The notes under the pieces are model-generated. The model saw only the letters and a list, made by a program, of their open reading frames with translations, had not been told where the DNA came from and made no database searches. Made by a program: the position numbers and the translations under genes. From the NCBI GenBank assembly GCA_963696385.1, contig CAVOKF010000003.1:480001-544000 (forward strand): a stretch of DNA of 64,000 bases. Reading direction: 5' to 3'. Shown here piece after piece: positions 1,884 through 52,181 of the stretch. Numbering within the stretch: position 1 is the stretch's first letter; each line of letters starts with the position of its first letter. Origin of the DNA: an uncultured delta proteobacterium. GTDB taxonomy: Bacteria; Myxococcota_A; Polyangia; Polyangiales; Polyangiaceae.

Positions 1884-2990
1884 ATGCAGCCGTTTCGCGT
1901 CTTTGTCGTCCTAGGTGCCTTCGCCGCGCTCGAGCCTGCGTGTTCCAGCCGTCCGAACGGTTCGACAGCGTCGACCCACCAAGCCGGGACAGGCACGACC
2001 ACGGGTTCCGCCGGCGCGGAGCCAACCACGACGCAGGGGGGAGGCAACCAAAACCAAGGCAACAGCTGCTCGGGCGGAGCTTGCTGCCCATTGCCCACTC
2101 AGGAAAGCGCGTGTCCCGGCGCCGATGAGGGTCAGGGCTGTCCGACGTTCATACAATGCCCAGGTGGCCTCAGCTTTGCGGCCGCGCTCACCTGCACGAG
2201 CGGCAGCTGGCAGATCCTCAGCGAGCCTTGCCCCGCCCTGGACGGGGGTCTGACGGCCGAGGGTTGTCCGGCCCAACAACCGTCACCAGGCGCCCCATGT
2301 TTTACATCGGACGCCTCTGGAGTGTGCGGGTACGCAGTCACGTGCACACCGTCCTGCGATGCCGCGCCCGCCGCGGTTCAGAACGCGAACCAGGGCAATA
2401 CGTCGACCGCGTCCGGCAGCGCCTGCGCGACTGTGTCTGAGATAGCCGAAGCGATATGCACAGGCGGACATTGGGCGACGGAACCGCTCGCGCCATGTCC
2501 AGGGCCCAGTGAGCCAACGGACGCGGCAGCGGCGAGTGTTGGCCCGAGCGTGGGCGGTGGCGGTTGCCCCGGAAAAGCCGACGCGGCGGCATGTCCGGCC
2601 CTCCCGTCGGGCTTTTCCGATCCAGGACCGTACTGGGTCGGATGCGAGTTTACGAACTGCTCGTCCGCAACGGCGTGCACCACTTGCTCTTGCGTCGATG
2701 CCGACGGCGGGGCCAACTGGGAATGCGCGAGCAATGACGGATTTCAGCCAGAGACGGATGCTCAGCCCACTCCGTATTGTGGGTTGAATTCGGGCCCCCT
2801 CGACGGCGGCGACCTGGCCGAAGCGAGCCCGTTCGAACAATGCACGCCGCAGTACCCCACGTGCACGCGTCCATCCCCCGAGTCACCGGGCTGGCAATGC
2901 TGCATCGTCTCCGGTGTAGGAGGCATCACCGAGATCTCTTGCATGCCCAATGATGCCGGGGCGTACCGCGGCAATTTCGGCGTTCCGTAG
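1884..2990 (+). CDS. Cys-rich secreted protein/lipoprotein (myxobacterial type)
   Basis: Signal peptide ending EPAC, many spaced Cys residues, DAG/DGG motifs; followed by the hairpin GCCGCCA-TCA-TGGCGGC. Confidence 0.75.
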   Translation: MQPFRVFVVLGAFAALEPACSSRPNGSTASTHQAGTGTTTGSAGAEPTTTQGGGNQNQGNSCSGGACCPLPTQESACPGADEGQGCPTFIQCPGGLSFAAALTCTSGSWQILSEPCPALDGGLTAEGCPAQQPSPGAPCFTSDASGVCGYAVTCTPSCDAAPAAVQNANQGNTSTASGSACATVSEIAEAICTGGHWATEPLAPCPGPSEPTDAAAASVGPSVGGGGCPGKADAAACPALPSGFSDPGPYWVGCEFTNCSSATACTTCSCVDADGGANWECASNDGFQPETDAQPTPYCGLNSGPLDGGDLAEASPFEQCTPQYPTCTRPSPESPGWQCCIVSGVGGITEISCMPNDAGAYRGNFGVP

Positions 2991-3587
2991 CCCGCCGCCA
3001 TCATGGCGGCCGCACCATCCTCACGCTACGAACGGTCGTCCTCTCAAAATCGTTTCGAGAGTTCGACGCAGCGGTGCCGTCAAGTGAAGGTTTGGCCGAT
3101 CGAGATCGGGTCACAGGAAAGGCCACCTACGCGCTGCCGGTCGCCGCGGTGACCGCCCGTTCCGGATACCGGCCCGCGGGGAAGGCTCGCACTGTTTCGT
3201 CCGAATCGCGGGCGAGTAGGCGCTCCAAAGCTTGTCGGCCGACGAAGAGACGCGGAAACCGCCGCGGTCACATAAAATCCCTTATGGGCATTCGTCGTCC
3301 ATGCAACGTCGAACCGATTTGGCGAAGCCATACGGCGACAGATTGGAGTCCATTGGATCGATATCGCATTTGACAGATTCGAATACCGGATTCAGATTGC
3401 CCGTCGCTTCCGAGCATCATCGCCTCCGTGCGAGTGGCGCTCGGACTCGGGGCGAGTGTTCTCAGGCTGCGCGGAAGACCCATTCGTGCGTTGGCGCTTT
3501 TTGTCGCTGCTCGTGCTGTCTCTGGCTAGACTCTGGGCCTCGACCGAGTACGTCGCCGCCGAGCTTCACTACCCTCCCTAGATCGGC

Positions 3588-4480
3588 GTGCCTTGGGTCC
3601 TCGTCGGATCGTGGCCCGCTTATCCGTCCTGGGGTTGGCTTCTCTGGAGCCCGATCGCCGAGTCGCGTGCGCCAACCCTCATTCGCGACGCCAGCGGCAT
3701 CACGACGATCGGCGCGATCGCCGGCTGCTCGGCTGCCGCAATTGCGGCCGTGCACCGCAGGCGTTCGGGCCCAAGCCGCTCCCACGGCAGCGCGCGGTGG
3801 GCCACGACGACCGAGATGCGACGCGCGGGACTCTTGCGCGAGGCCGGGGGGACGCCCTGTTTCGACACACGATCAACGCCGCCGGCCGGACGAAGACCGT
3901 GTTCCGCAAGTCCGGCCGACTCCGCCATGACGGGCCCGAGCACGTCTTCTGCTTCGCCCCCACCCGATCGGGTAAGGGCGTCGGCCTGGTCGTCCCGACG
4001 CTTCTAAGCTGGCCGCACTCGGTTCTCGTCTACGACATAAAAAAGGAAAACTGGGCGCTCACCGCGGGCTGGCGCCGCCAATTCAGTCGGGTCTGGCGCT
4101 TCGAGCCCACGGCCCTCGATTCGCTCCGCTTCAATCCGCTCCTGGAAATCCGCAGAGAATGGAACGAGGTGCGCGACGCCCAGAACGTCGGCGATCTGCT
4201 CGTCGACCGCGCCGGCGAGAAGGACACTCGTGACCACTGGCAAACGACGGCTCACACCCTGCTCACCGGGGCCATCCTGCACGTCCTCTACGCGGAGAGC
4301 GACAAGACCCTGTCCGGCGTCGCCCGGTTCCTCTCCAACCCGGACGCCACCCAGACGCAAACGCTCGAGCGGATGCTAGAGACCCCGCACCTGGGCGATG
4401 CGCCCCATCGCGCCGTGGCCCAAGCCGCGCGCGAGATGCTCAGCAAGAGCGGTGCGATCCGCGGCGAATCGCCTGAATAA
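3588..4480 (+). pseudogene. traG: TraG/VirD4 type IV coupling protein remnant (frameshifted, C-terminally truncated)
   Basis: SHGSARWA in one frame; GPEHVFCFAPTRSGKGVGLVVPTLL, DIKKEN, FNPLLEIR and DHW in the next frame; ends abruptly near 4450. Confidence 0.88.
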
Positions 4481-4602
4481 GACGCGTCCACGAGATTTCG
4501 AGCCACGGAGGGGTGGATCCGACTTTGTTGAATAATATCATTGGTATCGTAACATTGTGACCCACTTGAGACGACTCCCAGGACGATTCGAGGCCTGGCG
4601 AG

Positions 4603-4791
4603 CTCATCGCCGCGAAGCAAGCCAAGGCGGCGCGGCCCCTATCGACGGCGGGCGGACAGCACGCCACGGGGCGGTCCGACCCGAAGCCCGCGCCGACGGC
4701 CAGGTCCGCTCCCGGAAAGCCGGCCCCAGCGACGAAGCGGTCGCGCGCGCGCGACGTCGAGGTCATCGTACGCCGAAAGCCGAACCCGTAA
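4603..4791 (+). pseudogene. 3' fragment of a paralog of the HTH gene at 16270-16788
   Basis: Translates [12 protein letters not shown]...[19 protein letters not shown], compared with [12 protein letters not shown]...[19 protein letters not shown]. Confidence 0.8.
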
Positions 4792-4929
4792 GACGGTGGC
4801 CCGAGTGCCGTTGAATGCGGCAGGGCCTTTGCCGAAACACGTGACCTCGAGCGAATCCGGCGCGAGAACGTCAACGATTCATCGCGAGCCGCGAGGCCGA
4901 GATCCCGGGCACGGCGGGCGGGATACGAT

Positions 4930-5310
4930 TCGATCATGCACGCTCGTCACCGCCGATGTCTTCACGGATCGTGCGTTCGGAGGCAATCCCCTTGCCGTCT
5001 TTCCCGACGCCACCGCCATTGCCGAAGCCCAGCTCGTGCCCATTACTCGCGAGTTCAACTATTCGGAGACCACGTTCGTCTTCCCTCCAACCGATCCGCA
5101 CCATATGCGGCGCGTTCGAATCTTCACTCCGGCGGCGAAACGACTCGAATCACGTTCGAGGAGAACGTCGGGGTCGTGCCGGTCGTCATTCGGACCCGCG
5201 GCGGCGTCCCGGTCTTCGAGCGGCTCTCGGTCGCGAAGTTGCCCGAAGTCGGTCCTTTTGCCGGTCACCCGACGCTGGGGACCGCGCACGTCTTGGCGAC
5301 CCTGGGCACG
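4930..5310 (+). pseudogene. PhzF-family epimerase remnant with segments out of order
   Basis: [32 protein letters not shown], then [17 protein letters not shown], then [14 protein letters not shown]. Confidence 0.85.
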
Positions 5311-5353
5311 ACGCCGCCAAGGAGCCGGTCCCCGGCTGTGTTTGCCCTCTGCG

Positions 5354-5870
5354 ATGGCCCACCATCGTCATCCGGACGGCGCGACAGATTCTGCTGGAAC
5401 AAGGACCCTGCGATGCCCACGACATTTTCGCGCTCAGCGCGGATCTCGAGGTCACGCGCTACACCGGCGGCGACTCGTTCGAGTCCGTGGAATCCGCCCG
5501 ACGCTTCTTCGAGAGCTATCGGCACATTCACCGCCGTGAAGGGATGGCGCGTTGGACGGCACTCGACTCACGGACGGGCGAGTTTCTCGGCTGGTGCGGA
5601 CGGCGGCGTCAATCCGACGGAGACGTCGACCTGGGCTGTCGATACCGTCGATCCGTTTGGGGACGTGGGCTCGCGACCGAAGTGGGGCAGGCTTGCCTTC
5701 GGGTCGCATTCGAGCGCTTGCGGCTCTCGAGTGTCATCGCAAGAGCCCACCCCGAGAACGTGGCCTCTCTGGCGTGATTCAAAAGCTGGACTTCGAGTTC
5801 GAGGCGACTCGTGGTTCGAGGGCTTGCCGGCTGTCGTTCATCGGCTGCGCGTCGACGCTTGCGGTCGCTA
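5354..5870 (+). pseudogene. RimJ/RimL-type GNAT acetyltransferase with frameshifts
   Basis: [21 protein letters not shown]...WGRGLATE, HPENVAS then VIQKLDFEFE in another frame. Confidence 0.75.
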
Positions 5871-6030
5871 GACGCCACCGAGACCCGAACCAGCTGACCA
5901 CGACCCCTCGAGGCGCTCGCGCCTGCGCCGCACGGTCGTCCTTCCGCTCGTGAAGTCTTGCAGGCTCCCGCCCACTTGCACGGCCTTCTTGCCGGAGCTC
6001 GCGCCTCCCGACAGCGGACCCGGCTCCCCA

Positions 6031-6447
6031 TTAGGCCACGAACGGATTAACCACAAGCATGGCCCCGAAGCGCTGCCCTGCGTTCAGATCCTCGGAATAC
6101 AGCCGGTCGCACCCCGCGGTGATCGCGGCTTGCACGACGAGGGCGTCCCAGAAGGAGAGCTTGGCGTGTCGCTGGAGGTCGATCGCGCCGAGCAGGATAG
6201 GCCCGGTGTTGTCGACGACGGTCCAGGTCAAATACTCATCGACGATGTCTCTCGCCTTGCCGACCGCAAGGGGCTTCTTCAGCTTGCGTGTCACCGTCAC
6301 GTAGAACTCCTGGAGGATCTGCACGCTCAGGACTCCGTCGCGAAGGTCCCACAATTGCAGGACGAGGTCGCGTGCCAAGCGCTGCTTGTCCTTCGCGTCG
6401 GAGTCCTCCGCGTAGACGAGGACGTTCGTGTCAACGAAGCTTGGCAC
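6031..6447 (-). CDS. vapC: PIN-domain (VapC) toxin
   Basis: FVDTNVLVY, QILQEF, SFWDALVV, LYSEDL acidic PIN motifs; GTG start overlaps the antitoxin. Confidence 0.9.
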   Translation of the reverse strand: MPSFVDTNVLVYAEDSDAKDKQRLARDLVLQLWDLRDGVLSVQILQEFYVTVTRKLKKPLAVGKARDIVDEYLTWTVVDNTGPILLGAIDLQRHAKLSFWDALVVQAAITAGCDRLYSEDLNAGQRFGAMLVVNPFVA

Positions 6448-14971: not shown

Positions 14972-15478
14972 ATGAACGCCCCCGCCGATCTCTCCGCCTG
15001 GACGAACTTCTTGGTGACCTCCGCGGGCGCGTCGGCGGCCCTCGTTGGCCTGCTCTTCGTCGCCGTGTCCATCAACCTGGCGACCATTCTGGAGCACGCG
15101 TGGCTGCCCGCCCGTGCAGCCCTGGTGGTCATCATTCTGGTGGGCGCACTCGCGTGCGGCCTCGTCGGCCTCGTCCCCGGCCTGTCGATCCCGACGTCGG
15201 GCGTCCTCTTTTTCGTGATTGGCCTGATCGCGTCGGCTCTCACCGCATTCGTGCAGACAAGGGCGCGCGCGCCCGCGCACTCCTACGTCTCGCCGACGAC
15301 CCTCACGGTGTTGCAGATCGCTGCGGTCCAGGCCGGCCCTCTGTCGTTCGGGATCGCCGGTGCGTCGCTCGTCTGGGGACGAGGTGGCGGACTCTATTGG
15401 GTCGTCCCAGGGATGCTGTTCACGTTCATCGGGGCAATGTTCGTCTCGTGGGTGCTGCTCATCGAGATCCGTCGGTGA
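14972..15478 (+). CDS. Conserved integral membrane protein
   Basis: W.NF....GASAALVGLLFVAVSIN N-terminus; about 5 hydrophobic helices. Confidence 0.75.
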   Translation: MNAPADLSAWTNFLVTSAGASAALVGLLFVAVSINLATILEHAWLPARAALVVIILVGALACGLVGLVPGLSIPTSGVLFFVIGLIASALTAFVQTRARAPAHSYVSPTTLTVLQIAAVQAGPLSFGIAGASLVWGRGGGLYWVVPGMLFTFIGAMFVSWVLLIEIRR

Positions 15479-46003: not shown

Positions 46004-47806
46004 CTACGCAAGCACGCGAAGCGCACGGGCCCCCTTGCCTCCACCGCTCGGGCCGGCGGGGGCTTGGGGCGGCGGATGCCAGACCGCAAAATCCTTCGCC
46101 AGAGGGCCGGGAAGCGTAGGCTGCGAACGCCGCTCCAGCAGTTGAAAGTCGTGCGTCGCGAGGAGATCGAGCGACGCGACATCCGACGACGGCTGCGCCG
46201 CCCAGCGCTCGATCACATCCGCATTGCGCGCGATGACCCCATGTTGAGGATCGCGGCTCATCGCCTCCGAGAAGCGCTGTTGCATGCCTACGGCGTCGCC
46301 TCGCAGCGCGGCGATGCAAGCCAGATAGTTGAGCGCGAGCCCCGGCGCCGGATACTGCAGCTCGAGAGCCCGGCTCGCGTGGCGCTCGGCCTCGTCGAGC
46401 CGGCCCTCTCGGAAGTACGCGCCGGCCAAATCGAGATGCGCCGCGTGGTGGTCGCCCAAACGGCCCAGGATGGCCTCGTACTCCACGATGCCTTCGCGGA
46501 ACCCGTCGCGGAGGCCCTTGTTTCGCCGGAACCAATCGCGAAGGAACGCCGTGTCCTCGTCCGAAGCGTCGAACGTGGTTTTGAGTTCCTGAAAGTCGCG
46601 CTCGAAATAAAACTCGGCGTCGAGCCAGCCGGCCGCCACGGCCAAGTCGTAATCGCGCGTTCCCGGATAAACGGACAGGCAAGCAAAAATGGATTGATGC
46701 GGTTTGGCCCGTTCGAGAAACCTCAAGGTCTCCGCAAAAGTTTCCTGCGTCTCCCCGCGGTTGCCGATCATCATGTAATACCGGATCTTGATGCCGTACT
46801 TCTTCGCGAGTTCGCTCGAAGCGATGATCTCGTCAGGCGTAATCTTCTTGTCGATGGCGTCGAGAATTTTCTGCGAACCGGACTCGACCCCAAGGCTCAG
46901 CCGCTCGCATCCAGCGAGGCGCATCTCTCGCAAGAGCTCGTCACCGAGAACGTCAACGCGGGTGTCGCAGCTCCAGAGGAAGCGGATGTTGCGCTCCCGA
47001 ATTCCCCGGCAGAGAGCAAGCACACGCTTGCGGTTCGTCGTGAACGTGTCGTCCTTGATCTGAAGCATCTTGACCGGCGCCCGCGCGACCGCCTTCTCGA
47101 GGGCATCGAGCACGTACGGAACGGACTGACCGCGGTAGCCCCGCCCCCAGCTCGCCTCCGCACCGCAGAACGTGCAACGCCACGCGCAGCCGCGCGACGT
47201 CATCACAATGTGCGTGTCGAAGTAGTCGTGCACGGAAGCGAGCGCGTCGAGATCTTCGATCGCTGCCCGCTTTGGCGCAACGGCGAGCCGATGCCCATCC
47301 CGATAGACCGTTCCGGCGATGCCGGCCGGGCTCTCGCGCCGCTGCAATCGGTCGAGGATCTCGAGAAAGGTCTGCTCGCTCTCGCCGACGGCGATCGTGT
47401 CGATGTCTTCGTGGTGCGCGAGCATCTCTCGCGCGAGTGGCGTCGCGTGAGGACCGCCAACGACGACGTGCGATCTCGGGTGGATGCGCTTGATCTCGCG
47501 CGCAACCAGGGCCACCCCGCGCCGATTGGCCGTCCAACACGACAGGCCGTACACGTCGGCCTCCAAGACACCGATCGCGTGCTCAACGTGCCGCCAGGGA
47601 TAAGCGGATAGGTTGATGACCTTTACCGAATGTCCGGCGCGAAGCGCCTGCGCCCCGAGTGCGAAGAGACCGTACGGAGTCTGGAAGAAATCGCCGTCGA
47701 GGTCGCCCTGCGCGTACTCGGTCGGAGGCCCGTCGCCGAGAGGGTCGGGGGCTTCACCCGGCAAGGGGATTTTCCACGGGGGTGGGTACAACAACGCAAC
47801 GCGCAT
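46004..47806 (-). CDS. B12-binding domain radical SAM protein with C-terminal TPR
   Basis: GGPHAT, GESE, SRGCAWRCTFC, DDTF, GVESGS. Confidence 0.9.
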   Translation of the reverse strand: MRVALLYPPPWKIPLPGEAPDPLGDGPPTEYAQGDLDGDFFQTPYGLFALGAQALRAGHSVKVINLSAYPWRHVEHAIGVLEADVYGLSCWTANRRGVALVAREIKRIHPRSHVVVGGPHATPLAREMLAHHEDIDTIAVGESEQTFLEILDRLQRRESPAGIAGTVYRDGHRLAVAPKRAAIEDLDALASVHDYFDTHIVMTSRGCAWRCTFCGAEASWGRGYRGQSVPYVLDALEKAVARAPVKMLQIKDDTFTTNRKRVLALCRGIRERNIRFLWSCDTRVDVLGDELLREMRLAGCERLSLGVESGSQKILDAIDKKITPDEIIASSELAKKYGIKIRYYMMIGNRGETQETFAETLRFLERAKPHQSIFACLSVYPGTRDYDLAVAAGWLDAEFYFERDFQELKTTFDASDEDTAFLRDWFRRNKGLRDGFREGIVEYEAILGRLGDHHAAHLDLAGAYFREGRLDEAERHASRALELQYPAPGLALNYLACIAALRGDAVGMQQRFSEAMSRDPQHGVIARNADVIERWAAQPSSDVASLDLLATHDFQLLERRSQPTLPGPLAKDFAVWHPPPQAPAGPSGGGKGARALRVLA

Positions 47807-48089
47807 CCGGAGAAGCATTGTAGCTCCGGGCCGACGCGTTATGTGCAGGGCTTCACTTGGACGGAACCTCTTGCCCTCTCCGGCCCGGCGCGCGCCCCCA
47901 CGTCGGCCTCGGCGTGAACGACACGCAACGGCTGCCCCGCGGCGGGCGAAGGGGAAAAAGACCGATGGCCATTCCGCTCGGCAGACTCGCCTCGCTCCGC
48001 GCCGTTCCGAACCGCCGCCCCGGCTGGAGCCGCTCGACACGCTCCCGGATGTTCGCAAACATCTGCCACGCGAGGTCACCACCCCCCCG

Positions 48090-51000
48090 ATGACCATCCT
48101 CGTCGTTGCCGAAAAGCCAAGCGTCGCGCGCGACATTGCGCATGTGCTGGGGGCCCGCACCCGGTCCGAAGGCTACTTTCACGGCCCCGGTCACATCGTG
48201 ACATGGGCCCTGGGTCACCTCGTCACGCTGGCCGAGCCGCACGAGATCCATCCCGCGTGGAGAACTTGGCGGCTTGCCAATCTCCCGCTTCTTCCCCCGG
48301 CGTGGCCCTTGGTGGTCGCCGAAGGCACGCGCGCCCAGTTCGAAGTGGTTCGCAATTTGCTGCTGTCAAGCGAAATTCGCACCGTCATTTGCGCTACCGA
48401 TGCGGGTCGCGAGGGAGAGCTCATCTTCCGGTACATCTACGAGGCGGCCGGCGCGACCAAGCCCGTTCGCCGTTTGTGGATCTCGTCGTTGACGCCGGAG
48501 GCCATCGCCGCTGGCTTGCGTACGCTCAAGGATGGGAGCGCGTTCGACCGCCTCGCCGATGCAGCTCGTGGTCGCAGCCGCGCAGACTGGCTGGTCGGGA
48601 TGAACCTGTCGCGAGCGTATAGCGTCCTCCACGACGACAACCTGTCGGTCGGACGCGTGCAGACGCCGACGTTGGCCATGGTCGTGGAACGCGAGATCGG
48701 GATCCGAACCTTCGTGCCCGAGGATTATCTCGAGGTCGTCGCGACCTTCGGCCCGCAGACGCGCGATTTCGATCCCGACGATCCGAAGAGGGAGCGCCAG
48801 ACGTACGAGGGGACGTATCTGCGGGGTGGGACCCGTGAGCGAGACGCGCAGCGCCTGCCGCCGGACGGCAAAGACGCGGCCGCGATCGTCGAGCGCGCCC
48901 AACGCGGCTTCGCACGCATCGAGTCGATCGATCGTCGTTCGCGACACGTGCCGGCACCGGCACTTTACGATCTGACGGAACTCCAGCGTCATGCAAATCG
49001 GATCTACGGGTTTACCGCGCAGCACACGCTCGAGGTCGCGCAGACTCTCTATGAGAAATGGAAGCTTCTGAGTTATCCGCGGACGGACAGCCGACACCTC
49101 TCGAGCGCCGTCGCCGAAACCCTCGCGGCGGTCGTCGGAGCGATCGCCGCTCCCTACCAGGGGCTTGTCGCCGAGGGGACTGGGACACGACCGCTCGGTC
49201 CCCGCTTCGTAGACGACGCACGCGTCACCGACCACCACGCGATCCTTCCGACCGCCACCGTGGCCCCCGCCAGCCTGCCCGCAGACGAGCAAGCGATTTA
49301 CGATCTGGTATGCCGGCGCCTCCTCGCGGCGTGGCACAACAATCACGTCTACGCCGTGACGACGGTGCTCACGACCGTACAGTGGAACGCCGACCGGGAC
49401 CGCTACACGAGCGCGGGAACGAGCATCGAGAACGTGGGGTGGCGCGCGTTGGACCCCCAACCGGCGGGGGCCTCCGAGACTCGTCCGAAGGAAGGCCCAC
49501 GCGCCCCGGACCCATCGTTGCCGGGCGGCCTTGAAGCCGGTCTGCCTCGGCGCGTGGTCAACGCCAGGTCGGTCGCCAAGAGGACCCGACCGCCGCCGCG
49601 CTTCACCGACGGCACGCTGCTGACGGCGATGGAGACAGCGGGACGAACCCTCGACGAAGCCGAGGTCTCTCGTGCCATGCGCGAATGCGGCCTCGGCACA
49701 CCCGCGACACGGGCCGCGATCCTCGAGACTCTGGTTCGACGCGAATACGTCGTGCGCGAGGGAAAGACGCTCCAAGCGACGGACAAGGGAGTGGCGCTCG
49801 TCGAGATCGTGCATGAGCGCGTGAAGAGCCCCGCGATGACGGGCGAATGGGAATCCAAGCTTGCGCGGATCGAGCGCGGCGAGGAAAACCTCGCAAACTT
49901 CATGCGCGAGATCGAGATCTACGTCCGAGACGTCGTGGCAAGTGTGGCGTCGGGCACAGCGACGAGCGCCGGTCCCGATCGCGCGCCCGCCGGAACCCCA
50001 GCATCCCGCTACGTCCGAGACGTCGTGGCGAGTGGGGCGTCGGGCGCGGCGACCAGCACCGATCCGGATCGCCCGCCCGCCGGAACGCCGACACACCGCA
50101 CGGCGCGGTCGAACGACCTCGGCGTTCTGCTACGGACGTCGTTCGGCTTTCCCTCGTTTCGCCCGTACCAGGAAAACGTCTGCGTCGCGGCAGCGACGGG
50201 CAAGGACGTCCTTCTCGTCATGCCGACCGGCGCCGGCAAGTCGCTTTGCTATCAGCTTCCGGGCATCGCCCGCGGAGGAACGACACTCGTCGTGAGCCCG
50301 CTCATTGCGCTGATGGAGGACCAGGTCGCGCAGCTCTCCCGACGCGGCTTCGCCGCCGAGCGGATTCATTCCGGCCGCAATCGCGCAGACTCGCGCGCCG
50401 TATGCCGGGCTTATCTGGACGGCGCACTCGACTTTCTTTTCATCGCACCCGAGCGCCTCAAGGTACCCGGGTTTCCGGAGATGCTGGCGCGCCGCAAGCC
50501 CACGCTGGTGGCGATCGACGAAGCGCACTGCATTTCGCAATGGGGCCACGATTTCCGGCCCGACTACCGGATGCTGGGAGCACGCCTGCCCCTTCTGCGT
50601 CCCGCACCGGTCATCGCCCTCACAGCGACGGCAACCCCGATGGTTCAAGGCGACATCGTCGACGAGCTCCGACTCGAATCGCCGATGCGCTTCATTCACG
50701 GATTCCGTCGAACCAATATCGGCGTCGAAGTGATCGAACGAAGCCCGGGCGTCCGCGCGGACATCGTCCAGCGCCTGCTCGATAAAGCCGAGCGGCGACC
50801 GGCCATCGTCTACGCGCCGACTCGCAAGGAGGCCGAACAGCTTGCTCAAGAGCTGTCTCCGCGATTGCGCGCCGCTGCCTACCACGCGGGGCTTCGCGCC
50901 AGCGCGCGAGACGACGTCCAATCGGCGTTTCTCGGGGGCAAGCTCGACGCGATCGTCGCGACGACCGCGTTTGGAATGGGCATCGACAAGGCCGACGTTC

Positions 51001-52181
51001 GCCTGGTGGTGCACACCGCCCTACCCGCCTCCATCGAAGGGTACTATCAGGAGATTGGCCGCGCCGGACGCGACGGGAGGCCTTCGCGCGCCGTACTGAT
51101 CCATTCGTTCGTCGACACGAAAACACACGAGTTCTTTCTCGAGCGCGACTACCCTGACGCGAGCGTACTCGAGCGAGTGCAGGATGCCCTTTCGGCCGAC
51201 GCGAAATCCATCGCCGACGTCGCCGTGCGTTCTGGGGTGCCGGCCCCGGTCTTCGAGAAAGCGCTCGAGAAGCTCTGGGTCCACGGCGGTGCCCTCGTGG
51301 ACCCCGACGATACCATTCGGCGCGGTGGCGCGGACTGGCGCAGTGCCTACGAACGGCAGCGCGTTCACAAGAGCGAGCAACTCGCCAAGATGCGTCGCTA
51401 CGCGGAAACTCCCTCGTGTCGCATGCTTGCTCTCGTGGCGCACTTTGGCGATCTCAACGACCACGGATCTCCGTGCGGACTTTGCGACGTCTGCGCCCCT
51501 TCCGCGTGCGTCGGGCAGGCCTTTCGGAACCCGAATGCCGCCGAGCAACGCGCGGCGGCGCGCATCCTCGCCGCGCTTCGCGAGCGTGACGGACGGCCCG
51601 CGGGTCAACTGCACCGAGACCTCTTCGGCAACGGCGAGCTCGACCGGCGCTCGCTCGATCATGTGCTGGGAGGCCTTGCTCGATCGTCGCAGGTCACGAT
51701 CACCGGAGACGAGTTCGTGAAGGACGGCGCGACCATCGCCTTCCAGCGCATTTACCTGGGGCCGGCCGGGCGAAAGGCCGACACCCTTGCCGCGACCGAG
51801 ATCCGCATCGCCGTGGTTCCCGACGGCGCGCCTCGCGGAAGCCGGGGCAAGCCGGCCAAGCGAGGCGCCCGCCGACACGGGGCGCCTCCAGCCGCGAAGA
51901 GACGCGACAAGGATTCCGCGCAGCTCAACCATGTCAACCCGTCGAAATCAAGGGACGAAGCCTCGTCGCTCGAAGGAGCGCTGCGCGCGTGGCGCACCAA
52001 GGAAGCGAAGAGACGCGGCGTGCCTGCGTTCCGCATCCTCACGGACCGTACCTTGCTCGGAGTCGTGCGCGCGCGCCCAGCCGACGAAAATGAGCTCCTC
52101 GACGTCACGGGAATAGGGCCTACGCTCCTCGACAAGTACGGCCGTGAGCTCTTGGCGATCGTCGCCCAATCGGAGGCGTGA
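48090..52181 (+). CDS. topB: DNA topoisomerase III - RecQ helicase - HRDC fusion (1363 aa)
   Basis: AEKP, DAGREGE, GRVQTPT, SYPRTDS, GLGTPATRA; then MPTGAGKS, DEAH, SQWGHDFRPDY, TATA, QEIGRAGRDG, CR...CGLCDVC and an HRDC domain, all in one uninterrupted frame. Confidence 0.95.
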   Translation: MTILVVAEKPSVARDIAHVLGARTRSEGYFHGPGHIVTWALGHLVTLAEPHEIHPAWRTWRLANLPLLPPAWPLVVAEGTRAQFEVVRNLLLSSEIRTVICATDAGREGELIFRYIYEAAGATKPVRRLWISSLTPEAIAAGLRTLKDGSAFDRLADAARGRSRADWLVGMNLSRAYSVLHDDNLSVGRVQTPTLAMVVEREIGIRTFVPEDYLEVVATFGPQTRDFDPDDPKRERQTYEGTYLRGGTRERDAQRLPPDGKDAAAIVERAQRGFARIESIDRRSRHVPAPALYDLTELQRHANRIYGFTAQHTLEVAQTLYEKWKLLSYPRTDSRHLSSAVAETLAAVVGAIAAPYQGLVAEGTGTRPLGPRFVDDARVTDHHAILPTATVAPASLPADEQAIYDLVCRRLLAAWHNNHVYAVTTVLTTVQWNADRDRYTSAGTSIENVGWRALDPQPAGASETRPKEGPRAPDPSLPGGLEAGLPRRVVNARSVAKRTRPPPRFTDGTLLTAMETAGRTLDEAEVSRAMRECGLGTPATRAAILETLVRREYVVREGKTLQATDKGVALVEIVHERVKSPAMTGEWESKLARIERGEENLANFMREIEIYVRDVVASVASGTATSAGPDRAPAGTPASRYVRDVVASGASGAATSTDPDRPPAGTPTHRTARSNDLGVLLRTSFGFPSFRPYQENVCVAAATGKDVLLVMPTGAGKSLCYQLPGIARGGTTLVVSPLIALMEDQVAQLSRRGFAAERIHSGRNRADSRAVCRAYLDGALDFLFIAPERLKVPGFPEMLARRKPTLVAIDEAHCISQWGHDFRPDYRMLGARLPLLRPAPVIALTATATPMVQGDIVDELRLESPMRFIHGFRRTNIGVEVIERSPGVRADIVQRLLDKAERRPAIVYAPTRKEAEQLAQELSPRLRAAAYHAGLRASARDDVQSAFLGGKLDAIVATTAFGMGIDKADVRLVVHTALPASIEGYYQEIGRAGRDGRPSRAVLIHSFVDTKTHEFFLERDYPDASVLERVQDALSADAKSIADVAVRSGVPAPVFEKALEKLWVHGGALVDPDDTIRRGGADWRSAYERQRVHKSEQLAKMRRYAETPSCRMLALVAHFGDLNDHGSPCGLCDVCAPSACVGQAFRNPNAAEQRAAARILAALRERDGRPAGQLHRDLFGNGELDRRSLDHVLGGLARSSQVTITGDEFVKDGATIAFQRIYLGPAGRKADTLAATEIRIAVVPDGAPRGSRGKPAKRGARRHGAPPAAKRRDKDSAQLNHVNPSKSRDEASSLEGALRAWRTKEAKRRGVPAFRILTDRTLLGVVRARPADENELLDVTGIGPTLLDKYGRELLAIVAQSEA
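49920..50090 (+). repeat. 90-bp tandem duplication in the Topo-RecQ linker
   Basis: YVRDVVAS.ASG.ATS..PDR.PAGTP occurs twice, starting at 49920 and 50010. Confidence 0.9.

Follow-up and report, generated by a model that had tools for sequence, protein, structure and literature searches.

A candidate single-chain topoisomerase III-RecQ enzyme in Polyangiaceae and other bacteria

The DNA analysed here, called the window below, is a stretch of 64,000 nucleotides (contig CAVOKF010000003.1, positions 480,001 to 544,000, assembly GCA_963696385.1) from an uncultured delta proteobacterium of the family Polyangiaceae. The gene at window positions 48090..52181, on the plus strand like all its features described below, encodes a protein in which a predicted type IA topoisomerase of the topoisomerase III (Topo III) subfamily is followed in the same chain by a linker, a RecQ helicase and an HRDC domain, an architecture that rests on the open reading frame (ORF), Pfam and NCBIfam matches and the start consensus of homologues. 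The frame is open without interruption from 47613 to 52181. Its homology-backed start is the ATG at 48090, and with the stop codon at 52179-52181 it encodes 1363 residues. This start is preferred because the resulting N-terminus, MTILVVAEKPS, is the consensus N-terminus of 68 aligned homologues, and because residue 4 of the product pairs with residue 3 of E. coli Topo III in the alignment. The original prediction, made from the DNA letters, had described a single uninterrupted ORF and a product of about 148 kDa; all 1363 codons are intact, and the computed mass is 148.7 kDa (pI 9.3).

All six Pfam matches of the protein exceed the Pfam cut-offs, and the domain assignments, as judged from sequence profiles, are far beyond chance. 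The N-terminal half contains a Toprim domain (residues 4-133, 48099..48488; Pfam E-value 6.7e-10) and a Topoisom_bac core (residues 153-605, 48546..49904; 1.6e-103). In an alignment of 121 fused proteins, consisting of the query and 120 listed homologues (60-100% identity), no checked catalytic residue of either module varies, apart from gaps at Glu8 and from His813. Glu8 (48111-48113) is kept in 118 of the 121, the other three having N-terminal gaps; Asp104, Gly106 and Glu108 of the TDAGREGE motif (Asp104-Glu108, 48399-48413) are kept in all, as are Tyr329 (49074-49076), in the sequence SYPRTDS, and Arg331. Tyr329 pairs with Tyr328 of E. coli Topo III, which we take to be the catalytic tyrosine of that enzyme. 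The earlier description of an intact type IA active site stands for Glu8, Asp104, Glu108 and the tyrosine of SYPRTDS; it needs amending for the TOPRIM motif, which is of the form DxG and not DxD, with Gly106 in place of the second aspartate of the E. coli enzyme. The DxG form, as TDAGREGE or GDAGREGE, is also found in three Bacillus TopB genes that pass the NCBIfam model NF005829; Serratia TopB and the TopA of the host genome have the form DPDRE. As the alignment shows, both catalytic sets are under purifying selection.

The best-scoring curated family for the topoisomerase module is the Bacillus-type TopB family NF005829 (619.5 bits, cut-off 597), and the Topo III model TIGR01056 is also passed (523.9 bits, cut-off 515.75), while the topA models score far under their cut-offs. 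Residues 4-607 align with E. coli Topo III (E 2.4e-82). A loop formed by residues 515-533 (49632-49688) aligns without a large gap to the corresponding loop of the E. coli, Serratia and Bacillus Topo IIIs, and corresponds to the 'decatenation loop' of the E. coli enzyme; the TopA of the host has a 16-residue gap at this position. The loop is flexible in the AlphaFold2 (AF2) model, with a predicted local distance difference test score (pLDDT) below 50 at residues 519-534. The same model has the toroidal four-domain fold and superimposes on E. coli Topo III with a target template modelling score (TMt) of 0.81-0.88 over about 640 columns. By family models and predicted fold, the N-terminal half is a type IA topoisomerase of the Topo III subfamily.

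In the C-terminal half, the two lobes of the RecQ helicase are matched by DEAD (residues 691-849) and Helicase_C (residues 891-996), together at 50160..51077 (Pfam 2.3e-27 and 2.1e-21). The Walker A residue Lys717 (50238-50240) is invariant in all 121 proteins, and so is the DEAH box (residues 810-813, 50517-50528) except for His813, kept in 120; the motif VI arginines Arg991 and Arg994 are also present. FRPYQ, MPTGAGKS, DEAHCISQWGHDFRP, LTATA and QEIGRAGRDG, aligned to the E. coli RecQ core (Protein Data Bank (PDB) entry 1oyw), are conserved in the 121 homologues, and superfamily 2 (SF2) motifs 0 to VI, including DEAH, the aromatic-rich loop and the arginine finger, were all found. RecQ_Zn_bind (residues 1086-1135, 51345..51494; Pfam 2.7e-08) has the four cysteines Cys1110, Cys1129, Cys1132 and Cys1135 in 121 of 121, and the chain ends in the HRDC domain (residues 1297-1358, 51978..52163; 1.3e-18). 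Helicase motifs, four-cysteine zinc module and HRDC had all been predicted for this half, and all are present by Pfam and residue alignment. The RecQ half aligns with 1oyw at E 6e-90 and passes the subfamily model TIGR00614, recQ_fam (386.1 bits, cut-off 219.8). The E. coli RecQ equivalog models are not passed (TIGR01389, 479.4 versus 640.2; NF008279, 382.9 versus 1015), and by its position in the trees described below the module lies in a distinct RecQ clade, which it shares with stand-alone RecQs of Myxococcota and Acidobacteriota.

Pfam RQC has no sequence match in the protein even at E ≤ 10. The AF2 model of the RecQ module contains three helices and two long strands at module residues 475-548 (protein residues about 1150-1223, 51537..51758), and from the fold alignment a winged helix with a long beta-hairpin is therefore present, although Pfam is silent; the RQC domain is assigned by predicted fold only. 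The alignment with 1oyw breaks between module residues 351 and 437, where an insertion of about 55 residues (1024-1078, 51159..51323), which E. coli RecQ does not have, separates the zinc module from helicase lobe 2. It is predicted to consist of three helices and two short strands, with pLDDT above 90 (module residues 349-403). A second disordered spacer precedes HRDC (residues 1258-1290, 51861..51959; module residues 583-615), with pLDDT below 50 and a column conservation of 0.17. HRDC is optional in the fused family, being present in 90 of the 120 listed homologues and missing in 30. The HRDC-less subgroup, of about 1210-1430 residues, includes P0034, P0042, P0049-P0051, P0055, P0057-P0061, P0064 and others, and the homologues of Labilithrix luteola and Pendulispora albinea belong to it.

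The modules are joined by a disordered linker (residues 623-667, 49956..50090), for which the AF2 model has pLDDT 26-47 and no secondary structure. The unconserved stretch covers residues 617-676 approximately, the disordered linker being some 45-60 residues long; column conservation at the junction is 0.41 for residues 601-640 and 0.23 for residues 641-680. Measured from the last conserved topoisomerase helix to the first RecQ helix (query residues 612-682), the connection has a length of 34 to 183 residues among the 121 homologues, with a median of 55, and contains much Ala, Pro, Ser, Arg and Gly. Disorder, low conservation and variable length all fit the flexible linker that had been proposed. 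The linker contains an in-frame tandem duplication of 90 nucleotides (49919..50086, 1.9 copies, 88% matches), also found, as the same 30 residues, in a 93% identical homologue (P0003). Separate internal repeats are present in the linkers of P0019, P0032, P0034 and P0047, reaching 183 residues in the Pendulispora protein. To judge by these repeats, the linker has grown independently in different lineages by differing tandem peptide repeats, the duplication in the window being one case.

Read support across the junction had been named as a check on misassembly. The junction is covered by contigs of four public runs from four studies, one of which may be the source of the window itself, and no insertions or deletions are listed for them. 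Record 3 of run X1 covers 49374-50653 with 0 differences, record 17 of X2 covers 47900-50568 with 8, record 11 of X10 covers 49635-50132 with 2, and records 28 and 29 of X9 cover 49707-50074 and 50046-50550 with 3 and 0 differences, respectively.

Residues 1-1200 were modelled with AF2 from 76 sequences, giving a mean pLDDT of 83.1 and a predicted template modelling score (pTM) of 0.50; pLDDT is below 50 at residues 459-471, 519-534 and 623-667. Searched with Foldseek against the PDB, the first half finds E. coli Topo III as its best match and the second half finds RecQ catalytic cores; no solved PDB chain spanning both modules was found (query score, TMq, at most 0.46). The RecQ module modelled alone (residues 676-1363, 74 sequences) has pLDDT 91.5 and pTM 0.81. 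It superimposes on the Deinococcus radiodurans RecQ core with Z 41.4 (461 of 501 residues, chain 11-512), on 1oyw with Z 36.0 (473 of 516 residues, chain 12-516) and, through HRDC, on the BLM construct 7aud with Z 40.4 (model residues 1-688).

A domain-architecture search had been proposed to map the distribution of the fusion, and by its outcome the fusion is widespread and not confined to one strain. All 120 listed full-length homologues (60-93% identity) are fused, with Topoisom_bac, DEAD, Helicase_C and RecQ_Zn, and 118 of the 120 rows also have Toprim; named sources are Polyangiaceae, Labilithrix luteola, Pendulispora albinea and Myxococcales. Within the phylum, the fusion was found in at least 38 of 401 genomes, from nine families, as counted from the best 150 of 766 matches: 29 genomes have a single match over both modules and nine have both halves in one frame of more than 1300 codons. 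Ambiguous cases are G063 and G071, split by contig ends, and G308, with a frame change. Among 80 named loci taken from one-genome-per-species contigs, 14 have both modules, three of them with frame changes and one cut by a contig end; the record titles of these 14 name Polyangiaceae, Myxococcaceae, Solibacteraceae, Terriglobia and Acidobacteriaceae, as well as Bryobacterales, Thermoanaerobaculia, Oligoflexus and 'uncultured proteobacterium'. When residues 401-1100 were used to query a 50%-identity library, 65 of the best 150 representatives had both modules, always topoisomerase then RecQ and never reversed, and 30 of these 65 were near full length (1137-1450 residues). Pfam upheld the architecture in 15 of 16 divergent representatives, and the fused form reaches down to 34-36% identity per module. 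In the ESM Atlas, six clusters have the same family set, the three largest with 322, 96 and 70 members. Among at least 5000 matching plasmid records, none had a single locus that matched at least 80% of the protein. Many bacteria, from three phyla or more, have retained the predicted fusion, and the gene is not private to a strain, which had been one of the original doubts.

Annotation of these proteins names one half only, either as 'DNA topoisomerase 3' or as 'ATP-dependent DNA helicase RecQ'. Frame changes break the fused gene in several metagenome-assembled genomes (MAGs; loci L030, L038, L043 and L062), and the short hit P0230 and the frame-shifted locus L038 lie on one contig of 289,043 bases. 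Many 'stand-alone' or 'partial' Topo III entries near the fusion have tails rich in Arg, Cys and Pro, apparently out of frame. Because of these frame breaks and tails, separate and fused forms cannot be counted reliably in databases. One entry of the 50%-identity library, P0293 (1400 residues), has a Ser/Thr protein kinase and eight Sel1 repeats where the fusion has Topo III, before a RecQ module of the same kind, with DEAD, Helicase_C, RecQ_Zn and HRDC. The N-terminus of the fused-type RecQ clade seems, from such architectures, to accept differing partners.

The host genome, G000, is 6.94 Mb large and 96.4% complete. It has two Topoisom_bac loci, a TopA-like gene and the fusion, and the fusion alone passes the recQ_fam cut-off, the next best match having 65.9 bits. 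This genome has no Topo III and no RecQ besides the fusion. In five of five other fused genomes tested it is also the only type IA enzyme apart from TopA. Extra RecQ-family frames of 686, 697 and 532 residues were seen in G215, G293 and G123, respectively, and none in G000.

Trees of both modules were made by quick search under the LG+G4 model. In the topoisomerase-domain tree, 22 fused modules form one clade (SH-like approximate likelihood ratio test, SH-aLRT, 99), apart from Bacillus TopB and from 18 stand-alone Myxococcota Topo IIIs, a sample that left out the closest short database hits, many of which are partial or look out of frame. Candidate stand-alone Topo IIIs inside the fused clade are short matches, mostly 'partial' or with tails that look out of frame. 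The RecQ tree has 97 domains, and its 24 fused modules all fall inside a clade of 47 (support 99), together with 23 stand-alone RecQs, and the canonical RecQs are on the other side of the tree. On a 52-row tree, from which three contig-truncated rows were dropped and in which six outgroups were kept, forcing the fused RecQs to be monophyletic costs 197.6 log-likelihood units (approximately unbiased test, p-AU 2.9e-61), the group being defined by architecture but named after the first tree was viewed. At least seven changes between fused and stand-alone RecQ are needed on the 52-row tree, and nine on the 97-row tree. G075, which shares its genus with the fused genomes G175 and G215, has a stand-alone RecQ that groups as sister to the fused protein of G175 (support 100), and no topoisomerase remnant was found upstream of this RecQ at E ≤ 10. 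By this placement, G075 represents a recent clean loss of the topoisomerase half. Because the topoisomerase modules form one clade and the RecQ modules do not, the simplest reading of the trees is that the modules fused once, that the fusion spread across phyla and that the topoisomerase half was repeatedly lost. Among the genomes of the same family with such a stand-alone RecQ, one (G002) has Topo III and RecQ as separate genes on different contigs. Three stand-alone RecQ loci with unusually large frames were considered and gave no extra domain: two are ordinary ORFs (745 and 743 residues) and the third, of 1104 residues from a TTG start, is probably over-extended.

Upstream of the fusion gene lies a divergent gene for a B12-binding radical-SAM/TPR protein and downstream a convergent CBM_3 gene; the fusion gene looks monocistronic, and GC content is even over the region. 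The mechanical ORF of the divergent gene (46004-48160, minus strand) overlaps the start of the fusion gene by 71 nucleotides. No Pfam domain is found before residue 161 of its product, and the N-terminal 24 residues merely mirror the topoisomerase N-terminus on the opposite strand; the true start of this gene is probably further downstream. A promoter and terminator scan gave nothing useful close to the fusion gene. As a sign of SOS control, a LexA-box-like consensus, which we take to be that of Myxococcus, was looked for; it has one match in the whole window, at 15104-15120, far from the gene, with 1.6 expected by chance. No conserved neighbour or partner gene was found over 14 loci or over 22 loci with flanks of 1.5-5 kb, the only shared neighbours being those of three near relatives inside one family.

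RecQ and Topo III cooperate from bacteria to humans, where the pair is BLM-TOP3A. The E. coli proteins are described, in the relevant passages of PMC2647321, as cooperating on converging forks and junctions. The fusion shares with E. coli RecQ and TopB, which work with SSB, the two enzyme families, their folds and the expected joint job on converging forks and junctions; it differs in being one polypeptide instead of separate proteins, with no need for a bridging protein. Its topoisomerase module is of the Bacillus type (NF005829, DxG) and lacks a C-terminal tail of its own, and its RecQ has the insertion described above and a winged helix that has diverged beyond the reach of Pfam RQC. The eukaryotic dissolvasomes BLM-TOP3A-RMI1/2 and Sgs1-Top3-Rmi1 likewise combine an HRDC-bearing RecQ-family helicase with a Topo III-type enzyme. 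In yeast, according to a portion of PMC3905885, the N-terminus of Sgs1 binds Top3/Rmi1, so that the topoisomerase is held N-terminal of the helicase via a disordered segment, and the fusion places its topoisomerase there too. The eukaryotic complexes are non-covalent, whereas the fusion is covalently linked and has the bacterial Topo III loop instead. The RMI1 profile PF08585 has no match in G000, a negative that carries no weight because the control is silent as well, with matches in 0 of 14 genomes.

Hyperthermophiles are said, in the part of PMC7245102 concerned, to have 'uniquely' fused helicase and type IA units, i.e. reverse gyrase. No other natural fusion of these two enzyme kinds is widely cited. 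That enzyme likewise combines an SF2 ATPase with Toprim and Topoisom_bac in one chain. Its helicase-like domain, however, is N-terminal, and the order is opposite to that of the fusion, as had been noted at the outset and as Pfam bears out; it is not a RecQ and is without zinc module, winged helix and HRDC. The fusion has instead a long disordered linker and occurs in mesophilic soil and wetland bacteria, and it does not pass the reverse gyrase family model TIGR01054 (103.2 bits versus a cut-off of 471.7). Bacillus-type TopB (NF005829/PRK07726) has the same TDAGREGE/GDAGREGE TOPRIM and YPRTDS tyrosine motifs as the fusion, but is a stand-alone protein with open frames of about 727-731 residues, its own C-terminal region and no helicase. 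In Listeria monocytogenes (L138, NZ_LR134400.1, locus 2480-6429), the recQ and DNA topoisomerase III genes lie on the same strand, 23 nucleotides apart, as two genes in the order recQ then topB. Because this order is the reverse of that of the domains, the fusion is not a simple read-through of the Listeria arrangement, and the adjacency is separate genomic evidence that connects the two functions.

Full-text searches of the open literature and term look-ups in PMC10969213, PMC2647321 and PMC8191776, three reviews of type IA enzymes, with subscription journals outside the search, turned up no account of a Topo III-RecQ fusion in nature. The original prediction had likewise known of no biochemical characterization, and nothing to the contrary turned up in the open full texts covered. 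The fusion is apparently an unstudied natural single-chain version of a well-known partnership. The fusing of two known partners is an expected kind of event and not a conceptual surprise, and the architecture is common in databases.

We consider it likely that the protein is a real bifunctional single-chain enzyme, a tethered decatenase or dissolvase fed by its own helicase. The decatenase or dissolvase function is proposed because the separate E. coli proteins and the eukaryotic complexes have it, and by the same analogy the two activities may be coupled and driven by ATP. We infer the catalytic steps, the substrates and any coupling in cis of the fusion as follows. The RecQ module, sitting where stand-alone type IA enzymes usually have a C-terminal DNA-binding domain, would bind, through its winged-helix hairpin and HRDC, branched or gapped DNA, for instance converging forks, hemicatenanes, double Holliday junctions or D-loops. 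It would unwind 3'→5' with ATP (Lys717, DEAH, Arg991/Arg994), exposing the single-stranded DNA that a type IA enzyme requires. The tethered Topo III would then cut the exposed strand via Tyr329, pass a strand or duplex through the gate and reseal, the outcome being unlinking or dissolution without crossover. The tether would impose a 1:1 stoichiometry and a high local concentration, and could replace the bridging by SSB in E. coli or by the Sgs1/BLM N-terminus in eukaryotes. A stronger version, which we hold to be possible if doubtful, is that the tether gives an emergent processive activity beyond that of the separate proteins at physiological concentrations: a self-contained single-chain 'dissolvasome', independent of SSB and RMI1, which would migrate and unlink hemicatenanes or double Holliday junctions in cis, possibly with ATP-directed strand passage. 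If true, the fusion would be the simplest natural model for BLM-TOP3A-RMI and, among mesophiles, the equivalent of reverse gyrase.

The main rival to a tethered, helicase-fed enzyme is mere co-expression, in which the fusion would be mechanistically neutral, two independent enzymes being made together for stoichiometry or co-regulation and the tether adding no activity. We think this unlikely, but a number of observations weigh on its side or against the tethered enzyme. The models consist of two confident modules whose mutual geometry is not predicted to be fixed, and no fixed interface can be derived from them because pTM is 0.50 despite the confidence in the modules. The linker, of 34-183 residues, is very variable, of low complexity and subject to independent repeat expansions. 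The topoisomerase half, as the stand-alone RecQs nested among fused ones suggest, is dispensable in evolution, having been lost repeatedly while RecQ was kept. In four of the five genomes of the same family with such a stand-alone RecQ (G070, G075, G080 and G230; loci L024-L027), no Topo III above the cut-off was found, and three of the five other fused genomes tested have an extra stand-alone RecQ-family gene above the cut-off. E. coli RecQ and Topo III act in trans, as the pertinent passages of PMC2647321 have it, and Listeria has both as adjacent but separate genes. Among the listed public runs that hold the stretch, none is recorded as RNA. Obligatory coupling is disfavoured by the lack of a predicted interface, the variable linker and the dispensable topoisomerase half; because relatives repeatedly kept RecQ and lost the topoisomerase, coupling would be advantageous at most. 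A neutral fusion is, on the other hand, harder to reconcile with a fused form kept down to 34-36% identity per module, with the single domain order in all 65 two-module representatives among the best 150, and with the invariance of both active sites. The fused topoisomerase modules form one clade (SH-aLRT 99), which argues for long retention after a single event rather than for repeated accidents.

Two further roles are less likely than co-expression. In the first, the fusion would be an ATP-driven supercoiling machine acting as reverse gyrase does, or as PICH does with TOP3A; the helicase would partition twist and the type IA enzyme would relax only the underwound side, leaving net positive supercoils instead of dissolved junctions. 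The parts list, an SF2 ATPase and a type IA core in one chain, is common with reverse gyrase, which is an ESM Atlas feature neighbour (0.86) and whose NCBIfam model gives the partial match of 103.2 bits. Supercoiling is nonetheless improbable: that score is far under the cut-off of 471.7, the domain order is opposite, a full RecQ with zinc module, winged helix and HRDC replaces the helicase-like domain, the linker is long, disordered and variable without an intimate interface, and the metagenome runs in which the stretch occurs come from soil, wetland and peat, not from a hot habitat. Plasmid-borne Topo III genes and RecQ-like defence helicases exist, and like them the gene might serve a mobile element or defence island and not the maintenance of the chromosome. 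Horizontal transfer is suggested by the patchy distribution across phyla and by fused clades that mix Myxococcota, Acidobacteriota and Oligoflexus; the neighbours are not conserved, and DpdF is matched weakly (198 bits, cut-off 550). Such a role is very improbable in view of the plasmid records, of the fusion being the only Topo III and the only RecQ of its genome, of flanking radical-SAM/B12 and CBM_3 genes that are not mobility genes, and of the even regional GC content. The chance that the protein is an artefact, by misassembly or by sequencing read-through of two neighbouring genes, is negligible, since the gene is real, with independent contigs of four studies bridging the junction without insertions or deletions, and widely conserved, with fused homologues numbering in the hundreds, and since the errors near the locus, which split the gene in some long-read MAGs (L030, L038, L043, L062) and give many short 'Topo III' entries tails that look out of frame, act in the opposite direction; as far as sequence data allow, this explanation is refuted.

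The hand-over of DNA from helicase to topoisomerase is difficult to investigate in complexes that have many subunits and often hold together weakly. For cryo-electron microscopy and single-molecule work, a single chain that occurs in nature and fixes the stoichiometry at 1:1 would be convenient. It has the practical advantages that no accessory subunit is conserved alongside and that cultured, non-pathogenic myxobacteria carry it, Labilithrix luteola and Pendulispora albinea, and its natural variants differ in the presence of HRDC and in linker length (34-183 residues). The fusion also qualifies the statement, made in the section of PMC7245102 cited above, that reverse gyrase is the unique fusion of a helicase with a type IA enzyme. 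For annotation, it matters that these proteins bear the name of one half only and that frame errors often split them in long-read MAGs. Within the family itself, the repeated losses of the topoisomerase half, as read from the trees, would be natural 'experiments' on the value of coupling the two enzymes.

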